Below, one piece after another: positions 6,197-30,207 of a stretch of DNA of 64,000 bases. Numbering within the stretch: the first letter of the stretch is position 1; every line of letters begins with the position of its first letter. The DNA is from Candidatus Saganbacteria bacterium. Lineage in GTDB: Bacteria; Margulisbacteria; WOR-1; O2-12-FULL-45-9. The stretch lies in NCBI GenBank assembly GCA_013204645.1, contig JABMSE010000112.1, forward strand, positions 4 to 64,003, given 5' to 3'. The notes below the pieces were generated by a model that worked only from the letters and a program-made list of their open reading frames with translations, searched no databases and was not told the origin of the DNA. The translations under genes were made by a program, and so were the position numbers.

Positions 6197-7088
6197 AGAT
6201 GGTTTGCCCTTCTTTCAACATTGCATCAAGTGTCTTAACTACTTCATTAGTATTTAAAAGATAAGACCATCGTTCCCCTACTTTGATTTCTTTCAATATG
6301 CCCTCTTTTTGGAAATATTTTTTTACTCTTCTTGCAACCCTTCGATCGTGATCAATCCTTGTTTTTGCCAAATCTTCGCGGTGGCAATAAGTTGTGATAA
6401 TCTGGTATTTTCCCTTAGCATCGTTAATGCCGATTCTTATTGGTTTATCACTGTAAACTTTAAGGGGGAAATGCGGATTCAGATCTTCATAGACATGATA
6501 AAAAGTTATGAACTGAGTTGAAACCCCCAAACAAAGGATGTCAGCGTTTAACGCTAATAACTTTTGATAAGGCGAAAAGGCGTCAAATGGTGTTTTTGAG
6601 TTTATATGTTCGCTGACCAGGAATTTAGCTTGTGGACCATAAGCACAAACCGAATGGGTGGGATGACAACTTCGCAAAACACCGGGCCGACGCCTAAAGG
6701 TTTCACTTATCTTTCCTAATCCCGAAGGGCTCCTTTTGCAATCAAAAACTGGTGGCTTGTCAGTAACATAATCCCTCAATACGGGAGGAAACCAGCTAAA
6801 AACCGGTATTACCAAGGTACCATCAGGACCCAATACTTCTAAAATAGCATCGATAACTGTGTTTGCCTCACCTCTAACAAATCCTAACCGCTCCAAAGAA
6901 CTATGAACAAATAAGGTGGATCCCCCTTTCCCCCCCAAACTTCTCAATTTATTGACAATTTCTTCTTTGGGTATCTTTTCAGCAAAAAAGTAATCCCATT
7001 TTCTCCTAGTTCGGGCAGGGAGCTCCAATATGTATTTCCCAAAAGACCTAACACCATAAGGCAGCCTTTTTATAATTTTGTTCATCAC
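6186..7088 (-). CDS. AAC(3)-family (aminoglycoside 3-N-acetyltransferase fold) acyltransferase, likely a sugar N-acyltransferase
   Basis: N-terminal LRSLGGKGGSTLFVHSSLERLGFVRGEANTVIDAILEVLGPDGTLVIPVFSW matches the hallmark region of the AAC(3)/PF02522 family. The gene sits inside the glycan operon. Confidence 0.55.
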   Translation of the reverse strand: MMNKIIKRLPYGVRSFGKYILELPARTRRKWDYFFAEKIPKEEIVNKLRSLGGKGGSTLFVHSSLERLGFVRGEANTVIDAILEVLGPDGTLVIPVFSWFPPVLRDYVTDKPPVFDCKRSPSGLGKISETFRRRPGVLRSCHPTHSVCAYGPQAKFLVSEHINSKTPFDAFSPYQKLLALNADILCLGVSTQFITFYHVYEDLNPHFPLKVYSDKPIRIGINDAKGKYQIITTYCHREDLAKTRIDHDRRVARRVKKYFQKEGILKEIKVGERWSYLLNTNEVVKTLDAMLKEGQTIYAG

Positions 7089-8032
7089 CCTGCTCTCTTA
7101 ACTCCCTCTTTCTTTAGTAATAGCTCTATCATTTGCCTAAAATTAACCGAGGGTACCCAGCCAGTTAATTTTTTTATTTTTCGAGGATTACCAACCAATG
7201 GCTTTCTTTTTTTGCCTATAATGGTTGGCTTTGTTTCGACATAGTCTCTCCAATCTAAACCGGCATAAGCGAAGGCAATTTTGACAAAATCGACCACCCT
7301 ATGTTTTTTACCAGTGGCTATAACAAAATCATCCGCATGCTTGATCTGTAAGGTTTTATACATAGCCCTTACATAGTCGGGAGCATATCCCCAGTCTACT
7401 TCGGCCTGAAGGTTTCCAAGAATTAGTTTTTTTTGTTTTTTTCGTTTAATTTTTGCAACGGCCTTTATTATTTTTTTGCTTACAAATTTATCGTCGCGCA
7501 AGTGGGACTCATGATTAAAAAGAATCCCGGTCGAAGCGAAGATCGCATGTTTTTTGCGATAAAAACGGCAAACATAATAGCCGCTTGCCTTTGTGATCCC
7601 GTAAACGCATTCTGGATTTATTTCTGATTTTTCATTTTTTAAACCAGTGGCGCTTTCCCCAAAAATCCTAGAGGAAGCCGCATAAAATAGTCTAGCCTTT
7701 GGTGCATAGCGCCGCATACCCTCCAGGAAGTAAATTAAGCTGATGGTATTGGTGTTAAAGCTTCGTTTAAATAACAAAAGATTATCTTCTGGGGAGTCTT
7801 GGGAGGAATGGTGATAGGCTGCCAGGTAGTAAATTTCATCTGGCTTAAAAGAGTTAAGAAATTTCAATACTTGACTGGCATCCGAAATATCAACAAAATA
7901 CTTCTTTGAAGGACGAGTACTCAGGCTATAATTGATATCCAATCCTACTAAGCTGTATTTCTTTTCTCTCAGGAATTCATAGAGGAGTCTGCCATCCTGT
8001 CCCTTACAGCCTATTATAACTGCTTTTTTCAT
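7085..8032 (-). CDS. GDP-mannose 4,6-dehydratase-like short-chain dehydrogenase (paralog of gmd)
   Basis: N-terminal Rossmann motif VIIGCKGQDGRLLYEFL. The [11 protein letters not shown] motif is equivalent to the GMD motif [12 protein letters not shown], and the catalytic YxxxK region is present. Confidence 0.55.
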   Translation of the reverse strand: MKKAVIIGCKGQDGRLLYEFLREKKYSLVGLDINYSLSTRPSKKYFVDISDASQVLKFLNSFKPDEIYYLAAYHHSSQDSPEDNLLLFKRSFNTNTISLIYFLEGMRRYAPKARLFYAASSRIFGESATGLKNEKSEINPECVYGITKASGYYVCRFYRKKHAIFASTGILFNHESHLRDDKFVSKKIIKAVAKIKRKKQKKLILGNLQAEVDWGYAPDYVRAMYKTLQIKHADDFVIATGKKHRVVDFVKIAFAYAGLDWRDYVETKPTIIGKKRKPLVGNPRKIKKLTGWVPSVNFRQMIELLLKKEGVKRAG

Positions 8033-9282
8033 TTACTTATAACCTCGGGGATTGGTAAAGGGAAGAAAAGATTCCCTCCCTTTTGCATATATTCCTTTTC
8101 CCTTTTAATGATTCCATCTCTAAAATGCCAAGGTAGGACCATAAAGTAATCGGGTTTCATCGCCCTTGCTTCTCGCTCTGATATGATGGGGATAAGTGTT
8201 CCCGGGGTATAGCAGCCAAACTTGTTTTCATTAACTTCAGCAATGAAAGGTATGTCAGCCGAAGATAGGTTGCAGAATTGCAAAATAACATTCCCTTTTG
8301 TAGAGGCTCCATAGCCAAAAATGGTCTTGTTTTGTTTTTTCGCCTTGCGAATAAATTCTATTAATTGGTTACGGTGTTCTTCTACCCGCTTTTCAAATTC
8401 ACGATAAGGTTTTAAGCTGCCTAAGCCCATTTTTTCTTCTTTATGCATAACCGCATCAACCTTGTCGGTGATTTCCTGGTAAGGCGAATCAACTTTAGCT
8501 ACGGTTAACGAAAAACTTCCTCCATTAATGGGGTTCAATTCCAAGTCAATTATTTTAAAGCCAACCCTATCCATCATCCACTTAATTTGCTTTAAGCGAT
8601 AATATTCCAGATGCTCATGACACACTGTATCATAAGCATTTACCTCCAACATGGTAGGCAAATAACTTTGCTCAAAGGTCCATATTCCGTCTTTGGCTAG
8701 AGTTTGGTGGATTTGGCTAACAAAATCCATTGGGGATTCTAGATCATAGAACATAGCGATAGATGTTATTATTTTGGCCTTTTTTTTGCCAAATTTATTT
8801 TCAACCGTAGCGGCAGAGAAAAACTCAGGAATGAGTTGGATGTGTTCGGGATAATATTTCTTGAATTTGATTCCGGTGGGATCAATTCCGACCGTAAGCT
8901 GCCCTCTTTCGGGATAGGCTTGCAAAAGAGTACTGTCATTGCTACCAATATCGATTATCATATCTTGGGAATCAAGAGAAACAAGCCCGAGTATCTTTTT
9001 GACTTTATTGTGTAAATGCAACACCATAGACTGATTAAGACCAGAACGATAACCATAGTTTTCTCCATACATCTCGGTGTTGTCAAATGAATGCCTTAGT
9101 TGGACCAAACCGCAGTTTTTCCCATTGTTTTCGGAGCATTTCACTAGCTCTAAGGGGCCTGCCGTAAGAGATTGCTCACTGCTTTTTGGAAACACCCCCG
9201 TTAACTTTTGGGTTCCAAGGTCAAGTATTGGCTCCAAATTTTCATTCCCACATATTCGACATTTTTTGATTTCTTTAAACAC
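8029..9282 (-). CDS. SAM-dependent methyltransferase with N-terminal zinc ribbon and C-methyltransferase C-terminal domain (TylCIII/TcaB9-like sugar C-methyltransferase family)
   Basis: N-terminal CRICGN...C zinc-ribbon, followed by a class I methyltransferase core and a C-terminal domain typical of NDP-sugar 3-C-methyltransferases. Confidence 0.55.
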   Translation of the reverse strand: MFKEIKKCRICGNENLEPILDLGTQKLTGVFPKSSEQSLTAGPLELVKCSENNGKNCGLVQLRHSFDNTEMYGENYGYRSGLNQSMVLHLHNKVKKILGLVSLDSQDMIIDIGSNDSTLLQAYPERGQLTVGIDPTGIKFKKYYPEHIQLIPEFFSAATVENKFGKKKAKIITSIAMFYDLESPMDFVSQIHQTLAKDGIWTFEQSYLPTMLEVNAYDTVCHEHLEYYRLKQIKWMMDRVGFKIIDLELNPINGGSFSLTVAKVDSPYQEITDKVDAVMHKEEKMGLGSLKPYREFEKRVEEHRNQLIEFIRKAKKQNKTIFGYGASTKGNVILQFCNLSSADIPFIAEVNENKFGCYTPGTLIPIISEREARAMKPDYFMVLPWHFRDGIIKREKEYMQKGGNLFFPLPIPEVISK

Positions 9283-10462: not shown

Positions 10463-11595
10463 GGTTGGTTTTGCCCTACCCCGTCTGCTTTGGACCAGAG
10501 ATTCTGATATTCTAAAACCAGGTTTTTTATGGAACGATTTTTAACAAAAGAATAAGCTGTTTCTATCATCTTATCCGCACTTGGATGGGTTAGATGGAAA
10601 TTAACTTTTTCGGCCAAAGAGCTGGAATTTCCAGCTATTTCAAGCATCTCTTGAGAATGGGGGATTAATTCTAAGTAATCCTTCTTCATAGCATTATCAT
10701 AGATTGCAAAAACTAGACTCTTCTGCGCCATGGCTTCTAATATACCTAAATAACCGGTTACAAAGGCATACTTAAATTGCCTAGCGATTAAAAAGGGATC
10801 CTTTACAAACCCTTTAAACTCAACTTCTAAACCAGTCTCCTCTACCCGCTTTTTAATCTGAGGCATTAAGGGACCGTCCGCACAAATGATTAAGGGAAGC
10901 CGCTTTCCAAATTCATCTCTTAAAATAACCAGCGCTTCAATTATTTCTTTAATACCGGTGTCAAAATTCAGTCTACCAATAAATACGGCGCCCTCTTTTT
11001 TGGGAGCGGATTCTTGTCGGAATAAAATTGATTCGTCAATTCCCCCATAAGTTACTATGTTTGCCCGGGTCCCATACCATTTAACAATAAATTCACCCGC
11101 GCAAATATTACCTCGGGTTAAATATTGGCACAGCTTCCTAATTAAGATTATTTTTTTGCGTGGAGGACACTGACCTTCCCAACCATGAAATGTCATGTAG
11201 TACTCTTTCCAGAAAAGAATAAACCTAAATGGTAGGTACCAGTAATAAAGTGACCCAAAATCATGAAAGTGAATTATATCTGCTGCAAGCAGCAATTTAA
11301 AATGCGTCGCAAAAAACCAATATTTATCCATTATATTAGGATACCTTTTACTCGAGCGTTTCATGCGAAGGATAGTAAAACCGTCTACTTTTTCTTTTTC
11401 AGAAAGTGAGTTCTCTTCATTGTTTTCCGTTACGATAATAAGCTCATTGGTTTTGGCCAAGATTTTGGCAATTTCATGCACGTGCTTTTCCACCCCTCCC
11501 AGAAAGGGGTAAAATCTTGGGCAAATCATCAATATCTTTTTGCTTTTCATTTTGATTTTGCCCCGGACAAAATATCCCGCATTTTCTTTCGCCAA
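10459..11595 (-). CDS. Glycosyltransferase family 4
   Basis: Glyco_trans_4-like N-terminus (KILMICPRFYPFLGGVEKHVHEIAKIL) and a GT4 C-terminal domain. The start is probably the internal Met (MKSKK), given the 49-nt overlap with the upstream gene. Confidence 0.65.
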   Translation of the reverse strand: MAKENAGYFVRGKIKMKSKKILMICPRFYPFLGGVEKHVHEIAKILAKTNELIIVTENNEENSLSEKEKVDGFTILRMKRSSKRYPNIMDKYWFFATHFKLLLAADIIHFHDFGSLYYWYLPFRFILFWKEYYMTFHGWEGQCPPRKKIILIRKLCQYLTRGNICAGEFIVKWYGTRANIVTYGGIDESILFRQESAPKKEGAVFIGRLNFDTGIKEIIEALVILRDEFGKRLPLIICADGPLMPQIKKRVEETGLEVEFKGFVKDPFLIARQFKYAFVTGYLGILEAMAQKSLVFAIYDNAMKKDYLELIPHSQEMLEIAGNSSSLAEKVNFHLTHPSADKMIETAYSFVKNRSIKNLVLEYQNLWSKADGVGQNQP

Positions 11596-12401
11596 CCCAG
11601 ATAGCAGGCCTCTTGTTTGCTTAACTTGGCTTTAGTGTAAATAAAGAAATTACGGTTGAACCAATTGCGAAAGTTTGCCAACTTTATATATTTATCAATT
11701 GTTTTATAATGTTCTAGGTGAATGACCGGCAAGAAATTTAGAGAATTCTGAGTAGCATGGAGGCGATACTTTATTAGGTTCTTATTGATGAGGCCAATTT
11801 TGCTTTTTTCTGCAATCCTAAGCCACATGTCTAAATCAAAGGTGAATTTATACCCCCGATAATCAAACCCGCCGACTGAATCAATTATGTCTTTTCTAAA
11901 CATGGCCGTTGGACACACAAAGAAGCAGGCATGCTTCATCATAAGATTTAAGGTGGTGTTAAAATCGTAAATATTGATTTCGTCAAAAATATCTGGCAGC
12001 TTTGGATCGTCATAGTGACGCCCCGACTGATTGAGGTATTCAACAAAGGCAAAAACCACCCCGACTTCGTGATGTTTATCCATTAGCTTAACTTCTTCTT
12101 CCAAAATTGTTGGGGAATAAATATCATCGGCATGATAGAGTGCTATATATTCACTTGTAGCCAATTCAAGGCATCGGTTCCAGTTTTGCGGACTTCCAAT
12201 GTTTTTATCATTCCTATATAGCTTGATCCTTGGATCTTTTATGGATTCAAGGATTTCAAAAGTCGCATCGGTTGAGCAATTGTCTACAATAACAAACTCA
12301 AAATCCTTATAGCTTTGGTTTAGGATCGAATTAACTGATTCCCCTATATATTTTTCGGTATTGTACACTGGTATACAAACAGAAACCTTAGGCTTTGACA
12401 T
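11547..12401 (-). CDS. Glycosyltransferase family 2
   Basis: [42 protein letters not shown] is a canonical GT2 N-terminal motif, with a DxD present. Confidence 0.7.
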
Positions 12402-13752
12402 TCCCTACAAACTCCTTGATTTTCTCCGTCATATATTTGACTTTATCATCCGTCATCCCAGGATAAACTCCAATCCAAAAAGTATTATTCATAATTAAAT
12501 CCGTGTTAGTAAGCTCCCCAGAAATCCGGTACCCTTTTTTTGCCTTTCGCATTCCATCAAAGGCCGGATGCCGCAGCATATTCCCGGCAAAAAGCATCCG
12601 AGTTTGAATTTTATGTCCTTCTAAAAAATTTACGATTTCCTCGCGACTGAATCCGGCATCTGGTTTTACGGTTAAGAGAAAGCCAAACCAGCTTGGATCC
12701 GAACCGGGAGTTGCGTCACAGAAAATAAACTTATCTGAATACTTATCTAATGCTTTCCTTATAGTTTTGTAGTTCTTCTTTCTGGCAGAAATAAAGCCAG
12801 GTAGCTTATCAAGCTGCGCGCAGCCAATTGCTGCTTGCATGTCCGTAACCTTTAAGTTGAAGCCAAAGTGTGAATAAATGTACTTATGGTCATAGCCAAA
12901 GGGGAGCTCTCCCAGCTGCCATTTAAAGCGCTTTTTGCAGGTATCGTCTTTGCCGCTCGGACACCAGCAATCCCTACCCCAATCGCGGAAGGATTCAACA
13001 ATTCGCTTTAATTTGATATCATTAGTTAGAACCGCACCACCCTCTCCCATGGTCATATGGTGGGGAGGATAGAAGCTGCAAGTAGCCAAATGGCCAAAAG
13101 TACCCGTATATTTTCCCTGGTATTTTGAGCCCAAGGAGTCACAGTTATCTTCTATCAACCAAAGATTATGTTTTTTGCATATTTTTTTTACTTTATCAAT
13201 ATCAAAAGGGTTTCCCAGTGTGTGTGCTAAGATAACCGCTTTGGTTTTTTTGCTTACGGCTTTTTCCAGTTGTTTACAATCAACGTTATAGGAAGGTAGC
13301 GTAACGTCAACAAAAACGGGGATGCACCCATTTTGGATGATTGGTGCAATTGTTGTTGGGAAACCAGCTGCAACTGTTATTACCTCATCGCCTTTTTTTA
13401 GCCTTCTTTTACCCAGCTTAGGAGAGGTTAGCGCTGTGATTGCTAAAAGATTGGCTGACGAGCCTGAATTAGTAAGGCTGCAATATTTAACCCCAATAAA
13501 TTTAGCCAGTCTTTTCTCAAATTCTGCGGCAAACCTTCCAGTAGTTAGCCAAAAATCAAGCGCTGAATCAACCAGATTTATCAACTCTTTTTCATCATAT
13601 ACGCGGCCAGCATAGTTAACCTTGCTCTGTCCAGGAACAAACTTAGGTTCCTTTTTGAGCAGATGAAATCTTTTCACATCCTTTAATATTTTTTTTCTTA
13701 ATTCATCTCTTTGCATAAATCTCCTTTCGTTGGTAAAGTATGGGCATTCCAT
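12388..13752 (-). CDS. ddhC: CDP-6-deoxy-D-xylo-4-hexulose 3-dehydrase (E1; DdhC/RfbH/AscC family)
   Basis: DegT/AHBA-synthase fold. The PLP lysine is replaced by histidine ([13 protein letters not shown]). A [2Fe-2S] motif C-X57-C-X1-C-X7-C is present (NCDSL...[11 protein letters not shown]). The N-terminus resembles RfbH. Confidence 0.75.
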
Positions 13753-14771
13753 AAAACAGTGCGGTAAATCGCGTCCTTTAAGCCAATGGTTTGTTTTAAA
13801 TTAAGTTCAGCTAAAACGCGCCCAACTGCGGGAACATACCGAGAAGGTGGTTGTTGGGAAAGGGGTTGCTTAGCAATTTTAATTTCCATTGGTTTTTTAA
13901 AAACCTTGGCTACAACTTTCGCTAAATCGGAAATAGTGATAGCATCGTCTGCGCCAACGTTATAGGCGCGACATGATTTTCCTTTTAAAAGGATCGTCCA
14001 TAACCAGATAGCCAAATCAGCCGCGTAAAGATAAGATCGATAAGGAGTTCCATCACCATTCACCTTAATAGGTCCGCCTTCCAATCCATCCCGGATAAAG
14101 TTTCCAATGGCATAATGAATATCTAAGGGTAGATAGGGACCAACAAAGACAAAACAGCGAGCAATCTTAGTCTTAAGACCATACTTGCTTGAATAATATG
14201 AACAGAGAAATTCTGCAGCTCGTTTGCTTTCTCCCCAAGCAGAGCCCGGATTAGTTGGGTCAGGTGCTCCGCAATAGTCTTCCAGGGTATGAGTCATATT
14301 AGCTGGCTGTTTACCGTAAACGGCCCCGGAACTGGTTAGAAGAAAGTTTTTCGCCCCGCACTTAACGGCAAAATCTAGGATATGCCGGGTTCCAGCAACC
14401 ACTGTATCAAATTTAGTCAAAGGATCTTCACTATTAAAGGTAGCTCTAGCTGAGGTAGCAGCAGCATGAATGATGTAGGAAAACTCTCCAGGGGGGAAAT
14501 CAAAATCCCTAATGTCTCCGACATGAAACTGGATGGCTGGATTAGATGCCAGGTGTGGCACCTTTTTTACGAATGCGTTAGGGTTTCTGGTTAGAACCAC
14601 GGCGGAGGCGTTAAGATTTAAATTTTTATTTGCCCAGGCAAAACTTTCCAGGAGCCAACAGCCAAAAAAACCAGTTCCACCAGTAATAAACAAGCGCTTT
14701 CCCCGCAGATCTTCCCAAAGGCCCTGGGTGTGTTTTATTATATGGTTCAAGTCATCAGTAAGTGGATTCAT
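13698..14771 (-). CDS. NAD(P)-dependent epimerase/dehydratase (SDR) family, NDP-sugar reductase/epimerase
   Basis: Rossmann motif [16 protein letters not shown] and a YxxxK catalytic region. Its position next to ddhC suggests a CDP-sugar 4-reductase (paratose-synthase/YerF-like). The start is probably an internal Met. Confidence 0.55.
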
Positions 14772-15865
14772 GGTCGATAAAGTTGTCTTTCCTCCCGTTT
14801 GATAAAATCTTCCTTGGTAAATACTTCGTTATAGGGCACTGGCAAAGGCTTTCCATATACTTTTTTGGCCTCATATTCTTCGATAAATTCTCTATCTTCA
14901 GCAATAAAACAGGTGTCACAATATTTGCCAAAAAACTTGATATTTAAGCCCCTGTCAATGATATCTTTCAGGGGTTCTTCAAAAAAGTTCCCTAAAGAAA
15001 CATGGATATAAGGGCACGGCAATACGTCACCATATTTAGTGATCGAAACCATCCTTTTGACCGCTATACACCCCAGGTCAAGGCCATAAGACGGGGTCAA
15101 ATGGGTAAACACATTATATTTGCTCTCCAGCCCCCTTAAATAATCCATGTCATCTTTGTTAATAAGTACATCATAATTACCTTCCCATTCTCCTACAGGT
15201 TTGGCATAGGTAACAAATACCCCTACTCCTTTGCCATTAAGAAACGTCAGAAAATCAACAAATTCCTGTGATCTGATCCTTTGTTTTGTCACGACGGTCT
15301 GAATAATAATGTTCAGACCTGCTTTCTGTGCCGCATCAATAGCTCTTAAGCACCTTTCATGTGATCCTGGTTTGCGCCTGAACGCGTCATGATCTTCCAC
15401 GGAAAGACTGTCAAAACTCAGCTGGACCTTATCTACCCCTATTTCTTTGAGGTGTTTTGCCCTTTTTTCATCTAAATTCCATCCATTGGTATCAGAAGTT
15501 ATGTAAAATTTGGCAGGATCTATGGCTGCGACAATATCATCAAAATCCGGAAATACCAATGGTTCACCGCCAGTGATCACTATATGTGCAAGACCCATTT
15601 CGTCTGCTTGCCGTGCAAGCTCTTTCACGCTTTCAGGGGTAAAAAATCTGTTCGGATCCTTTCCTCTTAATCTGGTTATATCACAATGCTGGCAGGCAAA
15701 ATTGCATTTATAATCATATTGAAATTGAAGAATAGCTATACTTTCTCCATTTTTAATCTTTTCTTCAAATTTCATGATCTTCTGGTAAACATGCGGCTTT
15801 TCATTTTTAAGCAGGTTTCTCTTCTCTTTTTCGCTTGATCTCACCTTTTCTTGCAGACTTGACAT
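14768..15865 (-). CDS. Radical SAM protein with C-terminal auxiliary Cys cluster
   Basis: CNFACQHC (CX3CX2C) radical-SAM motif and the GGEPL SAM-binding motif. Extra cysteines near the C-terminus (CPYIHV..., CDTC) are suggestive of a SPASM/twitch-like domain. Confidence 0.6.
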   Translation of the reverse strand: MSSLQEKVRSSEKEKRNLLKNEKPHVYQKIMKFEEKIKNGESIAILQFQYDYKCNFACQHCDITRLRGKDPNRFFTPESVKELARQADEMGLAHIVITGGEPLVFPDFDDIVAAIDPAKFYITSDTNGWNLDEKRAKHLKEIGVDKVQLSFDSLSVEDHDAFRRKPGSHERCLRAIDAAQKAGLNIIIQTVVTKQRIRSQEFVDFLTFLNGKGVGVFVTYAKPVGEWEGNYDVLINKDDMDYLRGLESKYNVFTHLTPSYGLDLGCIAVKRMVSITKYGDVLPCPYIHVSLGNFFEEPLKDIIDRGLNIKFFGKYCDTCFIAEDREFIEEYEAKKVYGKPLPVPYNEVFTKEDFIKREERQLYRP

Positions 15866-15897
15866 AATAATTGCCTCCTTATCAGTAGATCAGTAGT

Positions 15898-17082
15898 TTA
15901 TTCCCTTATTTCCAGCCCAAAATCTCTCAATATAGCAATCTTAATATTTGGATCATAATTTTGCCGTATGATCTTCGTCACTTCATCAGAGTAACTGGCT
16001 GCCATAACAATGACGGCATCAACCGGTTCTTTTTTTAGTGTTTCGGGAGAAACTATAGGGATATGTGTGGCTGGCGTGTATTTTCCCTGCTTAAATGTTG
16101 CCGAATCAACCACATATTTGATCTTACCCGCTAGATTGGCCAAAGCAATAATTGCTAGCGCTTGATGCCCTGCACCCCAGATAGCGACATTTTTATTGCT
16201 AAAACGGCAAAGATATTCTTGGATTTCATTCGTAATCTTAATCTGGTAATCATGAAAATGTGAGAGGTCCAATTTTTTAGTTGCTTTGAGCGAGTCCACC
16301 ACCGAGGAATGAGCAAAAGGTCCTTTCCTAACAACGAAAGAAAGAATGTAGTCATGCCATACCGCATTGCATTCAATAATCTCAAAACCATTAAGTTTTA
16401 AGGCCGTAGTCAATGTATCTTTAGTAAAATAAAATAGATGATCAGAAATAAATTCGGAAAAAAGTTTTTTTTCAACGATCATATCAAAATTAGGTACCTC
16501 AACTAACCCTACCGCTTCATCGGCTAAATTATCGCGGATTCCTCTAAGCGCTGAATTTGGATCAGGTAAATGTTCAAAATAATTCATAATGAAAAAAGCA
16601 GCAAATGGTGCCCTTTTTAGCTGGTAAGTACCACTATCAATAAACCCTTTTGAGACATTTAACCCCTCCTTTTTGCAGAGTTCCACGGATTCTTCTAAAT
16701 GTTCCAGGCCGTAGGCATCGGCACCTGCTTGCTGCATAATAGAAAGATATTCTCCGCGACCACAGCCTATTTCCAGAACCTTTTTGCCTTTGAGTGAATA
16801 TTTATCCACAAATTCTCTAAATTGCCCAACGCGAAAGCTTTTCATTTCATCGGAAAAAGCTGCTGCGCGTATAACGTCTTTATAATAAGGAACTGGAGGA
16901 CTGCTTAATTGTACTAGCCCACAACCAGAGCATTGGTAGATAGTGAGACTTTCTCCGTGCTCGTTTTTGAGATTGCCTTTCTCTGGTAGAAACTGGGCGG
17001 CTTTGGGCATATTGTCAAATTGCAGCAAAGGCCCTTTAAAAAAAACATTGCCGCAAACTCTGCATTTTTCTTGTTTTTTCAT
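15898..17082 (-). CDS. Second zinc-ribbon SAM-dependent methyltransferase (sugar C-methyltransferase family paralog)
   Basis: CRVCGN...CSGCG zinc ribbon, with an EIGCGRGEYL SAM motif. The architecture matches the 8029..9282 gene. Confidence 0.55.
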   Translation of the reverse strand: MKKQEKCRVCGNVFFKGPLLQFDNMPKAAQFLPEKGNLKNEHGESLTIYQCSGCGLVQLSSPPVPYYKDVIRAAAFSDEMKSFRVGQFREFVDKYSLKGKKVLEIGCGRGEYLSIMQQAGADAYGLEHLEESVELCKKEGLNVSKGFIDSGTYQLKRAPFAAFFIMNYFEHLPDPNSALRGIRDNLADEAVGLVEVPNFDMIVEKKLFSEFISDHLFYFTKDTLTTALKLNGFEIIECNAVWHDYILSFVVRKGPFAHSSVVDSLKATKKLDLSHFHDYQIKITNEIQEYLCRFSNKNVAIWGAGHQALAIIALANLAGKIKYVVDSATFKQGKYTPATHIPIVSPETLKKEPVDAVIVMAASYSDEVTKIIRQNYDPNIKIAILRDFGLEIRE

Positions 17083-17105
17083 GCGATTCTAATTAACCTC
17101 ACAGA

Positions 17106-18908
17106 TTAATCTATATTTTCTTTGGAGATTGCCATATTATTCTTCAGTTCTTGCTCATCTAAGAAAGGCCACAGGTCTTCCAGAGGTTTTGATACCATTG
17201 AACCATCAGAAAGTTTCATTGATGACAGCCTTGGGGCCATTTGCAGGTCAGGATCGATCATTACTTCACAAACAACCGGGCCTTCCATCTTAAGAACATT
17301 AAGAACATCTTCTCGTAAATTATTCTGGTGCGAGATCTTTGCTGTTTTAATCCTATAGGCAGAGGCGATCTTTATGGTGTCTGGCAGAGTTAATCCGCTT
17401 GAAGGGTCACAACAGACCAGGCGTCCATCAAAAAATCGCTTATGCGTATTCCTGATGGCTGCGTAGCCGTAATTATTAAGAACAAAAAGTTTTATCGGGA
17501 TATTCAGCCTCTTTAACGTTTCCAGCTCCTGAATGTTGTGCTGGAGGCCTCCATCGCCAATAAGACAAACTGTTCTTTTTTTACCGCTGGCAAGACAAGC
17601 ACCTATACTTTGCGGAAGGCCAAAGCCCATTGAGCCCAAACCGGGCGAATTAAGGACCCGTTGCCCTTTTTTAACCTTAAAGGCCTGTGGAGTTATTTCA
17701 GCAGCGCTTCCCGAGCTTTCCGGCACAAGCACATCATCTGCGGTGAGCAACTCTGAAAGCGTTTCGACCAGGGCATATGTGTTCACGTATTTCGCCGGCT
17801 TTAAATATTCCTTGAGTATCACGGGATATTTTGTTTTCCATTCCCTGCATTTTGCTATCCAGGCTGACCTGTCTTTTGGTTTTACAAGGGCCAATTTACT
17901 GATGAATTCCTCTAAAAATGCTTTAGCGTCACATATCAATGGGATATCAATTTTCGTTTTAATTTTTCTGATCTCATTTTCATCAATATCTACAATAACT
18001 TTCCTGGCACCGCGCGCAAAGTTTTCATAACTATGCCCTACCTGGGGACGGTCCAGACGAGCACCAATAACTAATATAAGATCAGCATTTTGTTGGACGA
18101 AATTAGCAGCCCTTGAAGCAATAGATCCTGGCCTGCCAAAATAGAGATCGCTGTCTTCAGGTAAAATATCCATAAATCTCCAGGTCGACAACACGGGTAT
18201 TTTTAATGTTTCAATAACTTTTAAAAATGCATCATTTGCTCCGGCCAGACGTATGCCCCTACCCGCCAGGATCACAGGACGCTGGGCATTGTTAAAAAGA
18301 GATATGATATCTTCTGTCAAAGAATGAAAATTGTTGTTTTTTCGCTTTTCTTTTGAAGGAGTAAATCCTTTTAATTTATTCTTATCAATTATTGCTGCCT
18401 GCACATCTAACGGAATGTCTATCCATACAGGTCCGGGACGTCCGCTATTAGCAAGATAAACAGCTTTTTCCAGATGGTAGCGGATATTTTCAGGTTCAAG
18501 CACTGTAACAGCGTATTTAGTGATCGGCTTGACCAGTGAAACGATATCCACTTCCTGGATGCCTATCTGGCGAACGCCTGTCCCGGAAAGCAGGTCTTTT
18601 CGTTTGGTCTGGCCGGATAAGAGCAACAATGGCGTGGAATCGATCCAAGCGGCAGCTACTCCTGTTATTGTATTGGTAGCGCCAGGACCGGTGGTAACAA
18701 GCGCCGCTGCAATATTGCCATTGTATTGGGCATAACCGTCCGCAGCGATCACTGCTGCCTGTTCATGAAGGCACCCAATAAACTCTATCTTCTTGTTGGT
18801 GCCTATGGAATCGACCAGGTGCATACAGCCTCCGCCAGGCAGCATAAAAACGTGCTTTACTTTAAGTTCAGTAATAAAGTTAATAACATAATCTGATAAT
18901 TTCATCAT
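17106..18908 (-). CDS. Thiamine-pyrophosphate-dependent enzyme (acetolactate-synthase-like; YerE-like candidate sugar C-branching enzyme)
   Basis: N-terminal TPP_enzyme_N region (HVFMLPGGGCMHLVDSIG) and a C-terminal TPP-binding GDG...N motif (IGDGGLQHNIQELETL). 600 aa. Lies in a CDP-dideoxyhexose context. Confidence 0.65.
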   Translation of the reverse strand: MMKLSDYVINFITELKVKHVFMLPGGGCMHLVDSIGTNKKIEFIGCLHEQAAVIAADGYAQYNGNIAAALVTTGPGATNTITGVAAAWIDSTPLLLLSGQTKRKDLLSGTGVRQIGIQEVDIVSLVKPITKYAVTVLEPENIRYHLEKAVYLANSGRPGPVWIDIPLDVQAAIIDKNKLKGFTPSKEKRKNNNFHSLTEDIISLFNNAQRPVILAGRGIRLAGANDAFLKVIETLKIPVLSTWRFMDILPEDSDLYFGRPGSIASRAANFVQQNADLILVIGARLDRPQVGHSYENFARGARKVIVDIDENEIRKIKTKIDIPLICDAKAFLEEFISKLALVKPKDRSAWIAKCREWKTKYPVILKEYLKPAKYVNTYALVETLSELLTADDVLVPESSGSAAEITPQAFKVKKGQRVLNSPGLGSMGFGLPQSIGACLASGKKRTVCLIGDGGLQHNIQELETLKRLNIPIKLFVLNNYGYAAIRNTHKRFFDGRLVCCDPSSGLTLPDTIKIASAYRIKTAKISHQNNLREDVLNVLKMEGPVVCEVMIDPDLQMAPRLSSMKLSDGSMVSKPLEDLWPFLDEQELKNNMAISKENID

Positions 18909-19480
18909 TAAGAAATCCCTGCTAAGGCCTCTTTGAGCGTCATTTTATTTTTATTCCATGGCCTTGGTATTACAATGCCTTTTACCCCTGCATTTTTAGC
19001 CAATGATACATTATCCGAATTGTCTTCTACCAACAGATCAACTTTTTGTATCCATTTCAAGTAATCACCCTTATCATTATCATATTGCGGTATTTGCTCT
19101 CCGGCTCTCTTTGAAGGAACAAAGTGGAATGTCCTGATCCAAGGGCCAAAATTCCTTATCACCCACTGGGCTGAAAGATGAGCCGCGCTAAGCGGAACCG
19201 CTGTCAGGGCAATATGGCGGAAATTATTCCCATTTTCTCTGAACCATCCCAATACTTCTTTTATAGGAGCCATCTGCTCATACTTTCCCGATAATCGGAA
19301 CTCATCCAAAGATCGCGAATATTCTTCTATATCAGTATTTAACAGCCTGTTTGGAGGATTTTCACTGATATTCTCATAGTTTATTTTACAGGCCGGATGG
19401 TCCGGTTGCCATTTCTCTTTAAACCAGGTCAGCATTAAATCATTTAGGACGTCGTCTACGTCCCAAGCAATGGTTTTCAC
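18908..19480 (-). CDS. HAD-superfamily hydrolase/phosphatase
   Basis: N-terminal motif I, WDVDDVL (DxDxV). ~190 aa, nucleotidase-like HAD fold. Confidence 0.45.
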   Translation of the reverse strand: MKTIAWDVDDVLNDLMLTWFKEKWQPDHPACKINYENISENPPNRLLNTDIEEYSRSLDEFRLSGKYEQMAPIKEVLGWFRENGNNFRHIALTAVPLSAAHLSAQWVIRNFGPWIRTFHFVPSKRAGEQIPQYDNDKGDYLKWIQKVDLLVEDNSDNVSLAKNAGVKGIVIPRPWNKNKMTLKEALAGIS

Positions 19481-19491
19481 CTAGTCCCTCC

Positions 19492-21003
19492 TTAAGCATC
19501 CAGCCAATAAGATATGGCTGTTTTACGCTGCTTATTTTTTGCAATTTCGGGATCGGTGTAGAATGAATCATCCCTATGATGGGTGGATGAAATTTCCTCA
19601 ATTATCGCCCCGGTTTTACTGCTAAAAATGTGTTTGGTGCCCCTTTCTACAACCACAATATCCCCAGGGTTACCTCTGCTCTTCTTTCCATCCATCACAA
19701 ACTCAACATCGCCATGTAAGACATGGAAGGTTTCCTCTTTTTTATGGTGATATTGTTCTGGATGGCTTTGTCCTGGTACCAAGACAATCAACTTTTTGCA
19801 GTATTCCCGATTAATAAAATTAATTAAAGTACAACCTACTTCGCTGAAACGATCAACCCCATAATGGTGAGATATTTCAAGATCAAGCATCCCTGGAACA
19901 TTTACCTGACCATCCTGCAGAACTTTCTTGACCTGCTTAACAATGCTATAGATCTTTTCGCGATTATCGGTTCGACTAACCGAACAAAAGAGTACTGGTT
20001 TATTAGCTGCGATGTCCTCCTTGGCCGTGAACTCAATATATTTTGAAAAATCATTAGCTGTAATCTGATTGTCAATGGTTGGAATAGCCAGAAAGGTATC
20101 AGCTAAAGTAATGTGTTCACCTTTTTTTAGGGCTCTCTTTGCAAAAATCCCTCGCCTTAGTGCTTTTAAACTAGCAGTTTCGGCAGCGGGGAATTCTAAT
20201 CTCTTGTTCTCTACTCCACACATTTCGTAGGCTTGCTTGGCGCTCTTTAACCATTCCTTTACTTGAGCTGGGGTACTGGAATAGGCGTTGATTTTATATT
20301 TATCAGTTGGGACAGCAACATGTCTTTCAAGAATGCTGGCCCCTTTAGCAATTGCCATTTTAGCCGCAGCAAAATTATCAGGATTCTCGTGGGTTGAATA
20401 GCCAATAGCAACATCGGGATAGCGTTCTTTAAATAAGCTAATCTGATTAAGTTCAAGGCTTTCATTAGGCGTTGGGTAAGCGGCTACACAATGCATCAGT
20501 GCAAACATTTTGTCTCGATGCTTAAAAAATGACACTACCTTGTCAATATCTTCCAAGGAGGCCCCTGCAGTTGAAGCAATGATTGGCTTATTGGTTTTGG
20601 CAATCCGTTCTAAAAGTGGCCAATCGGAAAAAGAACAACTAGCGATTTTAATAATATCAAAATTATGCTTTTCAATCAGATCAACCGAGGCCTCATCAAA
20701 TGGAGTACAAACAGCAACAAATCCGGCCTTAATAACCTCCTCTTTTAAGCGTAAAAAATCAGCTCGAGAAAGCTTGGTCTCGCTGAAACGTTTAACATAT
20801 TTAATGTCCTTTCGATCTTTAAACTCCGGGTGGATGAATGTATCAAGTTGACGATATTGGAACTTAAAAGCGAATTTAAAATCGAATCCAGCACAGACAT
20901 CTTTTATCTCATTGATTACTTTTAATCCGTGTTCAACATCTCCCATGTGGTTGTTAGCCATCTCAAAAATGAACAATTTATTGAAGCGATTCCTTTTCAT
21001 CAT
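19492..21003 (-). CDS. NeuB-family (sialic/nonulosonic acid synthase-like) PEP-condensing enzyme fused to a C-terminal cupin domain
   Basis: N-terminal FIFEMANNHMGDVEHGLKVINE resembles NeuB/PseI. The TIM-barrel and SAF regions are present. The C-terminal ~110 aa show a cupin pattern (QSHPEQYHHKKEETFHVLHGDVEFVMDG). Confidence 0.6.
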   Translation of the reverse strand: MMKRNRFNKLFIFEMANNHMGDVEHGLKVINEIKDVCAGFDFKFAFKFQYRQLDTFIHPEFKDRKDIKYVKRFSETKLSRADFLRLKEEVIKAGFVAVCTPFDEASVDLIEKHNFDIIKIASCSFSDWPLLERIAKTNKPIIASTAGASLEDIDKVVSFFKHRDKMFALMHCVAAYPTPNESLELNQISLFKERYPDVAIGYSTHENPDNFAAAKMAIAKGASILERHVAVPTDKYKINAYSSTPAQVKEWLKSAKQAYEMCGVENKRLEFPAAETASLKALRRGIFAKRALKKGEHITLADTFLAIPTIDNQITANDFSKYIEFTAKEDIAANKPVLFCSVSRTDNREKIYSIVKQVKKVLQDGQVNVPGMLDLEISHHYGVDRFSEVGCTLINFINREYCKKLIVLVPGQSHPEQYHHKKEETFHVLHGDVEFVMDGKKSRGNPGDIVVVERGTKHIFSSKTGAIIEEISSTHHRDDSFYTDPEIAKNKQRKTAISYWLDA

Positions 21004-21761
21004 AATACCTCCATATAATTATCTCGGACTGCCCGAGTATTTTTGTGAATTCGTTTGGCTTGTTTTTCTGCTGTATTCCTTTCTTTTAAGGTTTGGTAAA
21101 TTGCTGCATCAAAATGAACCAGTAATAGGCGATCGGCTTTAGCTTTTTTGGCGATTTTAGCTGCTGTAGTTGGATCAAGATGTGGCCATCCTTCTTCTTG
21201 TATCCCTACTTTCATGGCACACTCGGCAATTAATAGATTTGCATTCTTAGCTAATTTAGCTGCGTTTGGACACGGACCTGTATCTGGAACATAAGCAAGA
21301 ATCTTGTTGCCAAACCGCAAACGAAAACCCAGACAAGGTACAGGATGCCTGAGCACGAGAGCGTTTTCCATGAAAGGAAGGTGTTTGTTTCTACCAGCTA
21401 TTTCAATAATGCGCGTTTTAAATGGTAGCTTGTTTAAGGCCAAGGTGAAATCTTTATTTACAATCGTTTTTAATATCTTTTTGCTACCTTTACGAATACA
21501 AATATTGAGTCCTTGAGGAAATCTAAACTTTGCCAAAATGTGCAAACCAATTATATGATCAAGATGAAAATGGCTTAAAAACAGATAAATTGGCTTATTG
21601 CTTTTGATATATTGATCAAGCTTATAAATTCCGTTGCCAGCATCGAGCACCACGTATTCATTGGCCGTTTCAATTAGAATGCAGATAGTGTTGCCGGTAG
21701 CTGTGTCATACCAACCATTGGTTCCCAGGAAAATGATTTTTATTTTATCTTGTTTTTTCAT
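21000..21761 (-). CDS. MBL-fold metallo-hydrolase
   Basis: HxHxDH motif (LSHFHLDHIIGLH) and a downstream His/Asp ligand pattern. Confidence 0.6.
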   Translation of the reverse strand: MKKQDKIKIIFLGTNGWYDTATGNTICILIETANEYVVLDAGNGIYKLDQYIKSNKPIYLFLSHFHLDHIIGLHILAKFRFPQGLNICIRKGSKKILKTIVNKDFTLALNKLPFKTRIIEIAGRNKHLPFMENALVLRHPVPCLGFRLRFGNKILAYVPDTGPCPNAAKLAKNANLLIAECAMKVGIQEEGWPHLDPTTAAKIAKKAKADRLLLVHFDAAIYQTLKERNTAEKQAKRIHKNTRAVRDNYMEVL

Positions 21762-22824
21762 AGTTTTTTATTTGGGCAAAACAGGTGTTTCTCAAATTTT
21801 TCTTCTCCTTATAAGCTTTTGTCCATTCAACAATTTCATCTAAGGTTTGGTTAATATTCCATTTTGGTTCCCATCCCAGAACTTTTCTGGCCTTTGACGA
21901 GTCCAAACTTAGATACGTGGTCTCATGAGGATGATTCCCCTTAGCGATTTCAAAGGAGGCTGTGTTTCCCCACTTTTTACAGAGTTTATTAACAACCCAT
22001 TCCACTGTCCTTGCATCCTGATTATTCGGACCAAAATTCCAAGCACCAGCATATTGTAAACCATGCTTGTAAAGCCTTTCGGCCAGCATTAAGTAGCCAG
22101 AAAGTGGCTCTAAAACATGCTGCCAGGGCCTAACTGCTTTGGGGTTTCGCACCCGAATTTTTCGTCCCTTCAAAATAGCCCTAACAAAGTCTGGTACTAA
22201 TCGGTCATTGGCCCAATCACCACCGCCAATTACATTTCCGGCCCGGGCCGAAGCTACATTCATGCCATATGAACAACGATAAGCAGTGGTTACTATTTCA
22301 GAGCAAGCTTTGCTGCTCGAATATGGATCATATCCCCCCAAAGGCTCATCTTCACGATAACCTCTCCTCTGCTCCCTATTTTCATAAACCTTATCGGTTG
22401 TAACGTTAAGTATGGCCTTGACCCTTCCTTGCTGTCTTGCTATCTCTAACAGATTAACTGTTCCCATTACATTGGTAGAATAGGTTTCGACTGGAATTTT
22501 ATAGGAATCACGCACAATTGGCTGTGCTGCCATATGGATAATGATTTCGGGCCGAGCTTTTATAATTGCTTGACTTAACGCTTTTTTATCCCTTATATCA
22601 GCTATAGTGGAATTTACAAGCTGATCAATCTGACAAAGGTTATATAAATTTGGCTTAGTATGCGGAACGAGAGCGTAGCCCGCAACCTTCGCTCCTAATA
22701 AATAAAGCCACAGGCTAAGCCATGAACCCTTAAAGCCTGTATGGCCGGTTATAAAAACTCTTTTGTTTTTCCAAAACTTATTCATTAAGCCCAAACCTTC
22801 CATGGAGCTTTGCCCGCGTTCCAA
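21745..22824 (-). CDS. ddhB: CDP-glucose 4,6-dehydratase
   Basis: FWKNKRVFITGHTGFKGSWLSLWL is a hallmark of the RfbG/DdhB N-terminus. SDR fold with YxxxK. Confidence 0.75.
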   Translation of the reverse strand: MERGQSSMEGLGLMNKFWKNKRVFITGHTGFKGSWLSLWLYLLGAKVAGYALVPHTKPNLYNLCQIDQLVNSTIADIRDKKALSQAIIKARPEIIIHMAAQPIVRDSYKIPVETYSTNVMGTVNLLEIARQQGRVKAILNVTTDKVYENREQRRGYREDEPLGGYDPYSSSKACSEIVTTAYRCSYGMNVASARAGNVIGGGDWANDRLVPDFVRAILKGRKIRVRNPKAVRPWQHVLEPLSGYLMLAERLYKHGLQYAGAWNFGPNNQDARTVEWVVNKLCKKWGNTASFEIAKGNHPHETTYLSLDSSKARKVLGWEPKWNINQTLDEIVEWTKAYKEKKNLRNTCFAQIKNYEKTR

Positions 22825-23570
22825 AGCTCATTAAGTAGTAAGAAGTCGCGGTAGGTATCCATGCAGTGCCAATAATTGTCCAAAGGATACATAGCCATTT
22901 GCTGCTTTTTGACCAGTGTTTCCAAGGGCTCTCGTTCTAGAGTACAATCTTCATCAACAGAGAGATAATCAAAAAGCTCGCGTTTAAACACAAAAAAACC
23001 ACCGTTTATAAATCCTTCCGATACTGAAGGTTTTTCGTTAAAAGTGGTTACCAGGGTGTCGTGGACTGAAAGTTCGCCAAACCTGGAAGGTGGTCGCACT
23101 CCGGTCATGGTTGCAATTTTGCCATGAGAACGATGAAAGGCTATAAGAGCATTAATATCAATATTAGCTACTCCATCCCCATAGGTGAGCAAAAATTCCT
23201 TGTCATTTCCAATATATGGCTTAACTTGGGCAACTCTGCTTCCGGTCATGGCCTTTTGGCCGGTATTTATAAAAGTAATATTCCAGTCTTCAAGATTAGC
23301 TTTGCTGTGATGAATAATACGTTCAGATTTAGAGCGCAGACTCAAAGTGAAATCATTAGATAATTCTTCAAACTTTAAAAAATAATCTTTTATCATGTCT
23401 CCTTTATATCCCAGACAAAGAATGAAATCTTTGTGTCCAAAATGGGAATAGGTCTTCATGATATGCCATAAAATAGGCATCCCTCCAACCGGCACCAAAG
23501 GTTTGGGACGATATTCGGTTTCTTCCTTTAATCGCGTACCTTGACCACCGCAAAGTATAACTACTTTCAT
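22785..23570 (-). CDS. ddhA: Glucose-1-phosphate cytidylyltransferase
   Basis: MKVVILCGGQGTRLKEETEYRPKPLVPVGGMPILWHIM is a canonical RfbF/DdhA N-terminus. Confidence 0.8.
   Translation of the reverse strand: MKVVILCGGQGTRLKEETEYRPKPLVPVGGMPILWHIMKTYSHFGHKDFILCLGYKGDMIKDYFLKFEELSNDFTLSLRSKSERIIHHSKANLEDWNITFINTGQKAMTGSRVAQVKPYIGNDKEFLLTYGDGVANIDINALIAFHRSHGKIATMTGVRPPSRFGELSVHDTLVTTFNEKPSVSEGFINGGFFVFKRELFDYLSVDEDCTLEREPLETLVKKQQMAMYPLDNYWHCMDTYRDFLLLNELWNAGKAPWKVWA

Positions 23571-28202: not shown

Positions 28203-28210
<8 letters not shown>
26762..28210 (-). CDS. Wzx-type O-unit flippase (MOP superfamily polysaccharide biosynthesis protein)
   Basis: 482 aa with ~12-14 hydrophobic helices and an N-terminal PolyS_synth-like pattern. 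Confidence 0.55.
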
Positions 28211-30198
<1,988 letters not shown>

Positions 30199-30207
30199 TT
30201 ATTGAAA

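Follow-up and report, generated by a model that had tools for sequence, protein, structure and literature searches.

Acyl branching of a cytidine diphosphate (CDP)-activated 3,6-dideoxy-4-ketohexose by a thiamine diphosphate (ThDP)-dependent enzyme is a known kind of sugar chemistry. In the yersiniose A pathway of Yersinia pseudotuberculosis (DdhA-D, YerE, and YerF), a carboligase of the ThDP/flavin adenine dinucleotide type with an acetolactate synthase fold acts at C4 of the E1/E3 product, and YerE, the founding member of its class, uses pyruvate (PMC9306805). The clusters for erwiniose (ErwE/ErwF/ErwI/ErwJ, Pectobacterium atrosepticum), caryophyllose (MMAR_2331/2332, Mycobacterium marinum), and gastriose (MygE/F/I, M. 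gastri) instead rely on a pyruvate aldolase, either BphI-like or HpcH/citrate-lyase-like, to supply a 4-hydroxy-2-keto acid, which ErwE, MMAR_2332, and MygE use as the donor on CDP-4-keto-3,6-dideoxyglucose or surrogates of it; ErwE refuses pyruvate, and a reductase step follows the C4 addition (PMC9306805). Here, we analyzed a stretch of 64,000 nucleotides (the window) from Candidatus Saganbacteria bacterium (Margulisbacteria; assembly GCA_013204645.1, contig JABMSE010000112.1, positions 4 to 64,003), in which a block of ten genes at positions 12388-23570 contains the genes for such an acceptor sugar and a YerE-like enzyme. On balance, we lean towards reading this block as an operon-like cassette for a CDP-activated, C4-acyl-branched 3,6-dideoxyhexose, a variant of the published acyl-branched scheme in which the keto acid donor would come from a phosphoenolpyruvate (PEP)-dependent synthase.

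The block consists of ten contiguous open reading frames (ORFs) on the minus strand that overlap or are separated by gaps of 11 to 32 nt. They are listed here from the 5' end of the minus strand, followed by the adjoining glycosyltransferase gene.

22785-23570, minus strand: DdhA, glucose-1-phosphate cytidylyltransferase (TIGR02623), makes CDP-glucose
21745-22824, minus strand: DdhB, CDP-glucose 4,6-dehydratase (TIGR02622)
21000-21761, minus strand: metallo-beta-lactamase (MBL)-fold hydrolase, RNase Z/PhnP-like (Lactamase_B_2, 58 bits), accessory gene
19492-21003, minus strand: fusion of NeuB with a D-lyxose-isomerase-like cupin, 503 residues (Pfam NeuB and Cupin_2)
18908-19480, minus strand: predicted HAD phosphatase, 5'(3')-deoxyribonucleotidase-like, 190 residues (AlphaFold2 and Foldseek)
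17106-18908, minus strand: YerE/JanthE-like ThDP-dependent carboligase (TPP_enzyme_N, M, and C), proposed branching enzyme
15898-17082, minus strand: S-adenosylmethionine (SAM)-dependent sugar C-methyltransferase with an N-terminal Zn ribbon, TcaB9/TylC3 type (Methyltransf_23, Methyltransf_14)
14768-15865, minus strand: radical SAM protein with a SPASM/twitch-type C-terminal Cys cluster (Radical_SAM, SPASM), putative tailoring step
13698-14771, minus strand: extended short-chain dehydrogenase/reductase (SDR) with Trp at the catalytic Tyr position (Epimerase family, 127 bits)
12388-13752, minus strand: E1 (DdhC/RfbH), CDP-6-deoxy-L-threo-D-glycero-4-hexulose 3-dehydrase (NF011936), pyridoxamine phosphate- and [2Fe-2S]-dependent C3 deoxygenation
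11547-12401, minus strand: family 2 glycosyltransferase (GT2; Glycos_transf_2, 119 bits), overlapping the E1 stop codon

An earlier note on this DNA, made from its letters and ORF translations, had predicted a yersiniose-like pathway from the same block; the NeuB-cupin, HAD phosphatase, and MBL hydrolase genes lie within the region it described and were missing from its gene list. The start codon of the ThDP enzyme gene overlaps the stop codon of the HAD gene, and the SDR and radical SAM genes overlap by 4 nt. Like the acyl-branched clusters, the window combines genes for CDP-4-keto-3,6-dideoxyglucose with a YerE-like ThDP enzyme and, as we infer, an aldol-type maker of a 4-hydroxy-2-keto acid, and both contain an oxidoreductase and, in the case of R. 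palustris, a methyltransferase. In contrast to those clusters, the window encodes NeuB-cupin and HAD proteins and no pyruvate aldolase, adds a radical SAM enzyme, and carries an SDR without the catalytic Tyr. With the yersiniose A pathway it shares DdhA, DdhB, E1, and the carboligase proposed to act at C4; it differs from that pathway in having no linked DdhD, a donor that is probably not pyruvate, a doubtful counterpart of YerF, and the additional NeuB-cupin, HAD, C-methyltransferase, and radical SAM genes.

The acceptor arm of the block is complete apart from E3. As the earlier note had stated, ddhA, ddhB, and ddhC/E1 are all present, and each product scored above its curated NCBIfam cut-off (DdhA, 328.7 bits against 300.25 for the TIGR02623 equivalog; DdhB, 492.5 against 278.45 for the TIGR02622 equivalog; and E1/RfbH, 756.4 against 423 for NF011936). 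E1 carries the exact iron-sulfur motif (C204-X57-C262-X-C264-X7-C272) and, within the 13-residue stretch where related aminotransferases have the pyridoxal phosphate-binding lysine, a pair of histidines, of which we take H231 to occupy the lysine position based on the register of the motif; both features had been read from the sequence before. Together, DdhA would make CDP-glucose, DdhB would convert it to CDP-4-keto-6-deoxyglucose, and E1 would remove the 3-hydroxyl group to give CDP-4-keto-3,6-dideoxyglucose, with electrons from a reductase or ferredoxin encoded elsewhere.

The ThDP enzyme, which the earlier note had recognized among the ddh genes, contains all three domains of its family (TPP_enzyme_N, M, and C), the GDGG...NN ThDP-binding motif (GDG), and the catalytic Glu in the sequence HEQ. 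When compared with solved structures, it scored 426 bits with JanthE of Janthinobacterium sp. HH01 (8rph; other entries are 8rpi and 8rpj), 291 bits with 5ahk, which we take to be PpYerE of Pseudomonas protegens and whose deposited name is acetolactate synthase, and at most 254 bits with true acetolactate synthases. The enzyme therefore appears closest to the YerE-like JanthE and 5ahk and not to acetolactate synthases. JanthE, a YerE-like lyase, takes pyruvate as one of several donors (PMC12188165), which include long 2-keto acids, and uses ketone acceptors. It is not an orthologue of the window enzyme, with 36% identity over the full length and a CDG in place of the GDG motif, and because of this low identity the window enzyme probably represents its own subgroup.

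We propose that the donor for this enzyme is made by the products of the two genes directly upstream. The first of these, the fusion protein, consists of a NeuB-type TIM barrel, an SAF-like linker, and a C-terminal cupin (Pfam NeuB, 152.7 bits; Cupin_2, 42.8 bits). Its NeuB domain scored below the cut-offs of the NeuB and PseI equivalogs (TIGR03569, 153.9 bits against 399.65; TIGR03586, 139.3 against 340.25, respectively), and residues 9-342 of the fusion matched the 350-residue chain of 3g8r with an E value of 1.8e-121. This structural genomics entry, named "probable spore coat polysaccharide biosynthesis protein E" and presumably from Chromobacterium violaceum, is highly identical to the NeuB part and belongs to the same subfamily; unlike the window fusion, its chain has no cupin domain. 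In an alignment with Neisseria meningitidis NeuB, the domain keeps the K, Q, K..S, S, S.H, and E.H positions, which we take to be PEP and metal ligands, while E134 and N184 (N. meningitidis numbering) are replaced by Ser and Ala and the residues that contact N-acetylmannosamine are not kept. The retained PEP and metal residues, the changes at E134 and N184, and the scores far below the NeuB and PseI cut-offs lead us to predict a PEP-condensing synthase that uses a different aldose substrate.

The cupin domain matched the Bacillus D-lyxose ketol-isomerase 2y0o (E value of 1.7e-10), with which it has the motifs PGQxxPE..H, KxETF, TKHxF, E(I/M)SST, and FTDP in common. In the window protein, Gln replaces the first His of the HxH pair, and H418, E423, and H457 are invariant in 26 homologues. 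PF07385 matches some of the homologues and not the window protein. We also considered a nucleoside diphosphate (NDP)-sugar 3,4-ketoisomerase or 3,5-epimerase activity for the cupin and rejected it, as we found no Pfam or PDB support for either and the domain matched lyxose and mannose isomerases best. Based on these similarities, the cupin would isomerize a ketose to an aldose and the NeuB domain would condense this aldose with PEP to a 3-deoxy-2-ulosonic acid, and we propose the fusion as the maker of a donor of this type.

The 190-residue protein encoded between the fusion and the ThDP enzyme had no Pfam match and no sequence match in the PDB. In its AlphaFold2 model (predicted local distance difference test score of 96.6), Foldseek placed deoxyribonucleotidase-like and other HAD-superfamily proteins, mostly phosphatases, at the top of the matches with a probability of 1.00. 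Among its homologues, some contain PF06941 or have been annotated as HAD hydrolase in their source, and a DxD motif (D7, D9), K137, D148, and D153 are invariant in the family. The protein is thus predicted to be an HAD phosphatase with a Rossmannoid HAD fold and a DxD nucleophile motif, and it would remove the phosphate from either the sugar precursor or the ulosonate.

Modules of a ulosonic acid synthase and a phosphatase are known from the biosynthesis of Kdo (3-deoxy-D-manno-octulosonic acid; KdsD-KdsA-KdsC) and from Bacteroides thetaiotaomicron, which has a synthase and a phosphatase for the 9-phosphate of KDN (ketodeoxynononic acid). The donor arm proposed here resembles them in combining an isomerase that provides an aldose, a PEP condensation that gives a 3-deoxy-2-ulosonic acid, and an HAD phosphatase. 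It differs from them in that a cupin fused to the synthase, and not an SIS-domain protein, serves as the isomerase, the phosphatase is deoxyribonucleotidase-like and not of the KdsC type, and a ThDP carboligase takes the place of the cytidine monophosphate (CMP)-activating enzyme. A CMP-ulosonate synthetase (CTP_transf_3) was found neither among the scanned ORFs of the window nor among the ten commonest conserved neighbor families that are absent from the window, which suggests that the ulosonic acid serves as a building block and is not activated as a sugar itself.

Thousands of proteins are related to the NeuB-cupin fusion at about 60% identity, and the fusion is encoded in at least 558 stretches of the GTDB species-representative collection (one genome per species), while a tblastn search of 72,556 plasmids gave no match to it. 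We used the best 80 of these at least 558 stretches as related loci, searched them with the window proteins by tblastn, and counted homologues within 10 kb of the NeuB-cupin gene. The 80 loci come from Nitrospirota, Desulfobacterota, Omnitrophota, Chloroflexota, Cyanobacteria, Bacteroidota, Planctomycetota, Verrucomicrobiota, Spirochaetota, Acidobacteriota, Actinomycetota, Beta- and Gammaproteobacteria, and Patescibacteria, and they include archaea (for example, Methanoperedens and Altiarchaeota). Homologues of the ThDP enzyme were present in 71 of the 80 loci, followed by E1 (61), DdhB (59), DdhA (53), the SDR (45), the 190-residue HAD protein and the radical SAM enzyme (44 each), and the methyltransferase at 15898-17082 (33, about 24 of them at the orthologue level of at least 54% identity); the MBL hydrolase occurred in 3, each time next to DdhB or E1. 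An HAD_2 family protein unrelated to the 190-residue type is encoded in 8 loci that lack the 190-residue gene, the two types never occur together, and a phosphatase of either family is found in at least 48 loci. In the 43 loci with at least 8 kb of sequence on both sides, the ThDP enzyme was present in 39 and E1 in 33, and in 41 of 65 loci the ThDP gene follows NeuB-cupin on the same strand, within 1.5 kb downstream of it. The recurrence of the same gene set beside NeuB-cupin in loci from so many phyla is more than chance, and NeuB-cupin, HAD, and the ThDP enzyme are the most consistently linked trio across them.

The order that recurs in these loci is DdhA-DdhB-E1-NeuB/cupin-HAD (190 residues)-ThDP, followed by a variable tail of genes for a Nudix hydrolase, C-methyltransferases, a B12-radical SAM protein, one to three radical SAM/SPASM proteins, and SDRs, often with an ArnC-like GT2 gene at the end. 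The window version is rearranged, with E1 at the end, no Nudix gene, and the extra MBL gene, for which all NCBIfam matches were under their cut-offs. The 171-residue Nudix hydrolase is encoded in 33 of the 80 loci (for example, L016, L022, L015, L064, and L033), in many of them directly after the ThDP gene, and may control or hydrolyze the CDP-sugar. Tails differ among L041, L078, L067, L004, and others, with up to three radical SAM/SPASM genes, a gene for a B12-binding radical SAM protein, and several genes for Zn-ribbon methyltransferases, and this variability would fit rapid diversification of a side chain. Some loci encode two ThDP enzymes, among them L046 and L013 of an uncultured archaeon (10594-12282 and 3243-5003). 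The L013 enzyme encoded at 10594-12282 shares 44% identity with 5ahk, more than any enzyme of the cassette type does, so two different branching enzymes may coexist in such a locus.

These observations suggest a pathway in which the donor and acceptor arms meet at the ThDP enzyme. The product of a NeuB-type reaction is a 4-hydroxy-3-deoxy-2-keto acid, which belongs to the same donor class as the acid made by aldolases in the acyl-branched clusters, and we propose the donor arm of the cassette on this ground. The ThDP enzyme would decarboxylate the 2-keto acid and attach the acyl anion so formed to CDP-4-keto-3,6-dideoxyglucose at its C4 ketone, so that C4 becomes a tertiary alcohol bearing a long, hydroxylated side chain. 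The C-methyltransferase, the radical SAM/SPASM enzyme, and the atypical SDR would then modify the branched product, and a glycosyltransferase would use it for a surface polysaccharide. A YerE-like, ThDP-dependent C-branching of the E1 product had been suggested in the earlier note, and both the relationship to JanthE and 5ahk and the co-occurrence with NeuB-cupin and E1 across the related loci agree with it. That note was also right to expect a sugar more elaborate than yersiniose. Its two-carbon branch from pyruvate fared less well: the tight linkage of NeuB-cupin and HAD, the closest partners of the ThDP gene, points to a long acyl branch derived from a 2-keto sugar acid.

Of the enzymes proposed to act after branching, the methyltransferase gave a full-length match to D-mycarose 3-C-methyltransferase (4rv9; E value of 2.6e-28) and also matched TcaB9 and 5t6b. 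It contains an N-terminal CxxC...CxxC and a GCGRG motif and scored 59 bits with Methyltransf_23 and 56.7 bits with Methyltransf_14, while its score with Methyltransf_13 (27.3 bits) was under the cut-off of 31.3. Methyltransferases of the TcaB9 type act on a carbon next to a ketone, and both the CDP-4-keto sugar and the new ketone in the side chain would offer one. The earlier note had placed two C-methyltransferases in the pathway. The one at 15898-17082 fits that description, whereas the second and more canonical Zn-ribbon enzyme (8029-9282) lies 3 kb outside the block, shares 22% identity with the first, and co-occurs with the cassette in 1 of the 80 loci, so we rejected it as a pathway member and assign it to another pathway. 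It is part of a separate set of genes at 5240-9282 that also encodes a dehydratase-like SDR (7085-8032), an aminoglycoside-3-N-acetyltransferase family protein (6186-7088), and a polysaccharide deacetylase (5240-6196) and that probably makes a C-methylated, N-acetylated amino sugar.

The radical SAM protein and the SDR that had been noted among the ddh genes are both present. The radical SAM enzyme scored 97.7 bits with Radical_SAM and 24.8 bits with SPASM and has the CX3CX2C motif at residues 54-61 (CNFACQHC). All of its NCBIfam matches were far below their cut-offs, assigning it to no named subfamily, and its nearest relatives in the PDB are MoaA and BlsE (54 bits). The best PDB match of the SDR is UXS1, a UDP-glucuronate decarboxylase (2b69, 94 bits); its GxxGxxG motif is intact, and a Trp is aligned with the Tyr of YxxxK. 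When we compared members of this SDR family from the window and from related loci (L015, L016, L022, L064, L055, L058, L066, L073, and L040), the Tyr was lost (to W, L, or H) in SDRs encoded directly after a 365-residue radical SAM gene and kept in most others, as in loci where that radical SAM gene is absent. The radical SAM enzyme and the Tyr-less SDR look like a co-evolving pair. The SDR occupies the place where a YerF-like ketoreductase of the side chain would be expected, but its chemistry is uncertain.

Several points weigh against the acyl-branched pathway as we propose it. The sole SDR of the window cassette lacks the catalytic Tyr, so the expected YerF-like reduction is not clearly provided. 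JanthE and 5ahk are just 34 to 40% identical to the cassette ThDP enzymes, and the Nudix hydrolase of the 33 related loci is not required by the model. About one-fifth of the complete loci, mostly from Betaproteobacteria, have NeuB-cupin and the ThDP enzyme with no ddh genes within 9 to 10 kb; in these the acceptor may differ, or its genes may lie elsewhere. In addition, enzymes of the lyxose isomerase family act on unphosphorylated sugars, which leaves the exact place of the phosphatase unclear.

In the first of four alternatives to the acyl-branched pathway, the block would encode a plain yersiniose-type route, with a two-carbon branch from pyruvate that is later C-methylated and modified by radical chemistry, and NeuB-cupin and HAD would make an unrelated sugar acid. 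We consider this unlikely, although both YerE (PMC9306805) and JanthE, the nearest solved structure (PMC12188165), take pyruvate, and the methyltransferases and B12-radical SAM proteins of related loci could extend a short branch by methylation. ErwE-type enzymes show that members of this class can exclude pyruvate (PMC9306805). A free ulosonic acid would also need a cytidylyltransferase, which is missing from the window ORFs and from the ten neighbor families described above, and the separation of NeuB-cupin and HAD from the ThDP enzyme is difficult to reconcile with genes that are contiguous or overlapping in the window and form the most consistently linked trio across phyla.

A second alternative is a pathway like those for pseudaminic and legionaminic acids, in which a Nudix or MBL hydrolase would release the 3,6-dideoxyhexose from CDP and NeuB would condense it with PEP to a deoxy-nonulosonic acid. 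NeuB-family enzymes normally follow an NDP-sugar hydrolase in those two pathways, a Nudix hydrolase is encoded in the 33 related loci, and the MBL gene adjoins DdhB in the window. However, the window has no Nudix gene, a CMP-transferase is absent from the scanned window ORFs and from the ten conserved neighbor families, activation by DdhA would be wasted, and the YerE-like ThDP enzyme, the isomerase-like cupin, and the HAD phosphatase would be left without a role; we regard this alternative as improbable. A little less probable still is that the ThDP enzyme only decarboxylates the ulosonic acid to a 2-deoxy-aldose, as a form of chain extension, while the ddh genes separately give an ordinary 3,6-dideoxyhexose reduced by the SDR. 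ThDP-dependent decarboxylases of 2-keto acids are common, the loci without nearby ddh genes are consistent with such a split, and the SDR could in principle be a 4-reductase, but the nearest relatives of the ThDP enzyme are carboligases that accept ketones, the window SDR has lost its catalytic Tyr, E1 is linked in 33 of the 43 complete loci, and we found no encoded route that would activate the free deoxy sugar. Finally, we dismiss as barely credible that a true acetolactate synthase of branched-chain amino acid synthesis happens to lie in the locus, since the enzyme, although its best NCBIfam matches by name are acetolactate synthase large subunits (TIGR00118, 388.8 bits against a cut-off of 538.35), falls under every acetolactate synthase cut-off, is nearer to JanthE and 5ahk than to any acetolactate synthase structure, has no small subunit or ilv genes in the window, and is conserved beside NeuB-cupin and E1 across many phyla.

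The acyl-branched pathway requires reduction of E1, and the window, as the earlier note had said, encodes no E3: a tblastn search with Salmonella DdhD had no match in the 64 kb (the best E value elsewhere was 0.57), and no Fer2, FAD_binding_6, or NAD_binding_1 domain was found in Pfam scans of the window ORFs. We also ruled out a small ferredoxin-like ORF hidden in the block, for which the intergenic gaps of 11 to 32 nt leave no space. The absence of E3 had been considered an oddity of this locus. However, tblastn detected no DdhD homologue in the 80 related loci, and among four plasmid ddh clusters that we examined DdhD lies beside rfbH only in Salmonella, with none next to rfbF-rfbG-rfbH on the Desulfobaculum, Azospirillum, and Methylovirgula plasmids. 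Thus, E1 outside the enterics appears as a rule to have an unlinked reductant, and this locus is not anomalous in that respect. The conserved iron-sulfur motif of E1 indicates that an electron donor is still needed, and the simplest assumption is a housekeeping ferredoxin, flavodoxin, or reductase; E3 is reported to be replaceable by other reductases in vitro. On the Desulfobaculum (L083, 11316-13114) and Methylovirgula (L085, 11358-13111) plasmids, split transketolase genes encoding the N- and C-terminal halves directly follow rfbH. In these cultured bacteria they form a ThDP-dependent route of another kind to a C-branched 3,6-dideoxyhexose, also with no E3 nearby.

While ThDP-dependent branching of this kind is known, the NeuB-cupin and HAD donor module, the tailoring by a radical SAM enzyme and a Tyr-less SDR, and the very broad phylogenetic spread appear to be undescribed in the literature we searched. 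No paper in that literature, which did not extend to the JanthE discovery paper or the cluster survey by Krug et al. (2024), links NeuB to YerE-type or CDP-dideoxy clusters, and an earlier description is possible. If the pathway is as proposed, it would provide a second, PEP-dependent way to donors for ThDP-dependent sugar branching, would predict, given the fusion in at least 558 hits among GTDB species representatives, that many uncultured lineages carry branched sugars with very many carbons in their envelopes, and would offer a co-evolved isomerase-synthase fusion, phosphatase, and ketone-accepting carboligase that could be used to make chiral tertiary alcohols. Orphan YerE-like enzymes such as JanthE may also find their physiological context in it, and, judging from how much the radical SAM and methyltransferase genes of its tail vary, the cassette may be a hot spot for the diversification of surface antigens. 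The cassette should clearly interest glycobiologists and ThDP enzymologists, and its chemistry rests on inference from the genes.

A bolder version of the acyl-branched pathway, to which we give tentative and less than even credence, is that these cassettes make a novel class of sugar, a CDP-3,6-dideoxyhexose of 12 to 14 carbons in which C4 bears a C6-C8 polyhydroxyalkyl chain from a Kdo- or KDN-like ulosonic acid. In that case, a NeuB-type synthase would feed a ThDP carboligase, the radical SAM enzyme and the Tyr-less SDR would remodel the product, E1 would be reduced by a general low-potential ferredoxin or flavodoxin, and the sugar would be a widespread component of surface glycans in uncultured bacteria, bacteria of the candidate phyla radiation, and archaea.

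The cassette lies in a surface-polysaccharide locus that spans about 1.7 to 33.3 kb and again 38 to 46 kb of the window, nearly all of it on the minus strand, and that includes genes for a heptosyltransferase, an O-antigen ligase-like protein, Wzz, Wza, GDP-fucose synthesis, and many glycosyltransferases. The GT2 gene at 11547-12401 is a weak candidate for the transferase of the cassette product; it has generic N-terminal similarity only to the ArnC-like GT2 that closes the cassette in 14 other loci. We detected no RNA elements in the window with Rfam or in a tRNA scan. At 28203-31224, genes for GDP-mannose 4,6-dehydratase, a GDP-fucose synthase-like SDR, and a GT10-family fucosyltransferase-like protein lie side by side, so a fucosylated glycan is likely made from the same locus. 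A GtrA-like flippase, a GT2, and a PMT_2 protein (an ArnT-like GT-C) are encoded at 38134-41181, with a second PMT_2 gene at 491-1789, which suggests periplasmic glycan modification via a polyprenyl-phosphate sugar. An rmlB-like gene for dTDP-glucose 4,6-dehydratase (44550-45518), next to an rmlA-like gene (45515-46234), contains one in-frame stop (LPL*GDG, where Tyr is expected) that is a nonsense mutation, the mark of a pseudogene, or an assembly error. A flagellar cluster (50643-63268) with genes for FliF, FliH, FliI, FliJ, FlgA, the rod proteins FlgF/G, and a FliA-type sigma factor (56255-56983) adjoins the polysaccharide locus, and genes for RecG, RNase PH, CoaD, and RsmD lie between the two.

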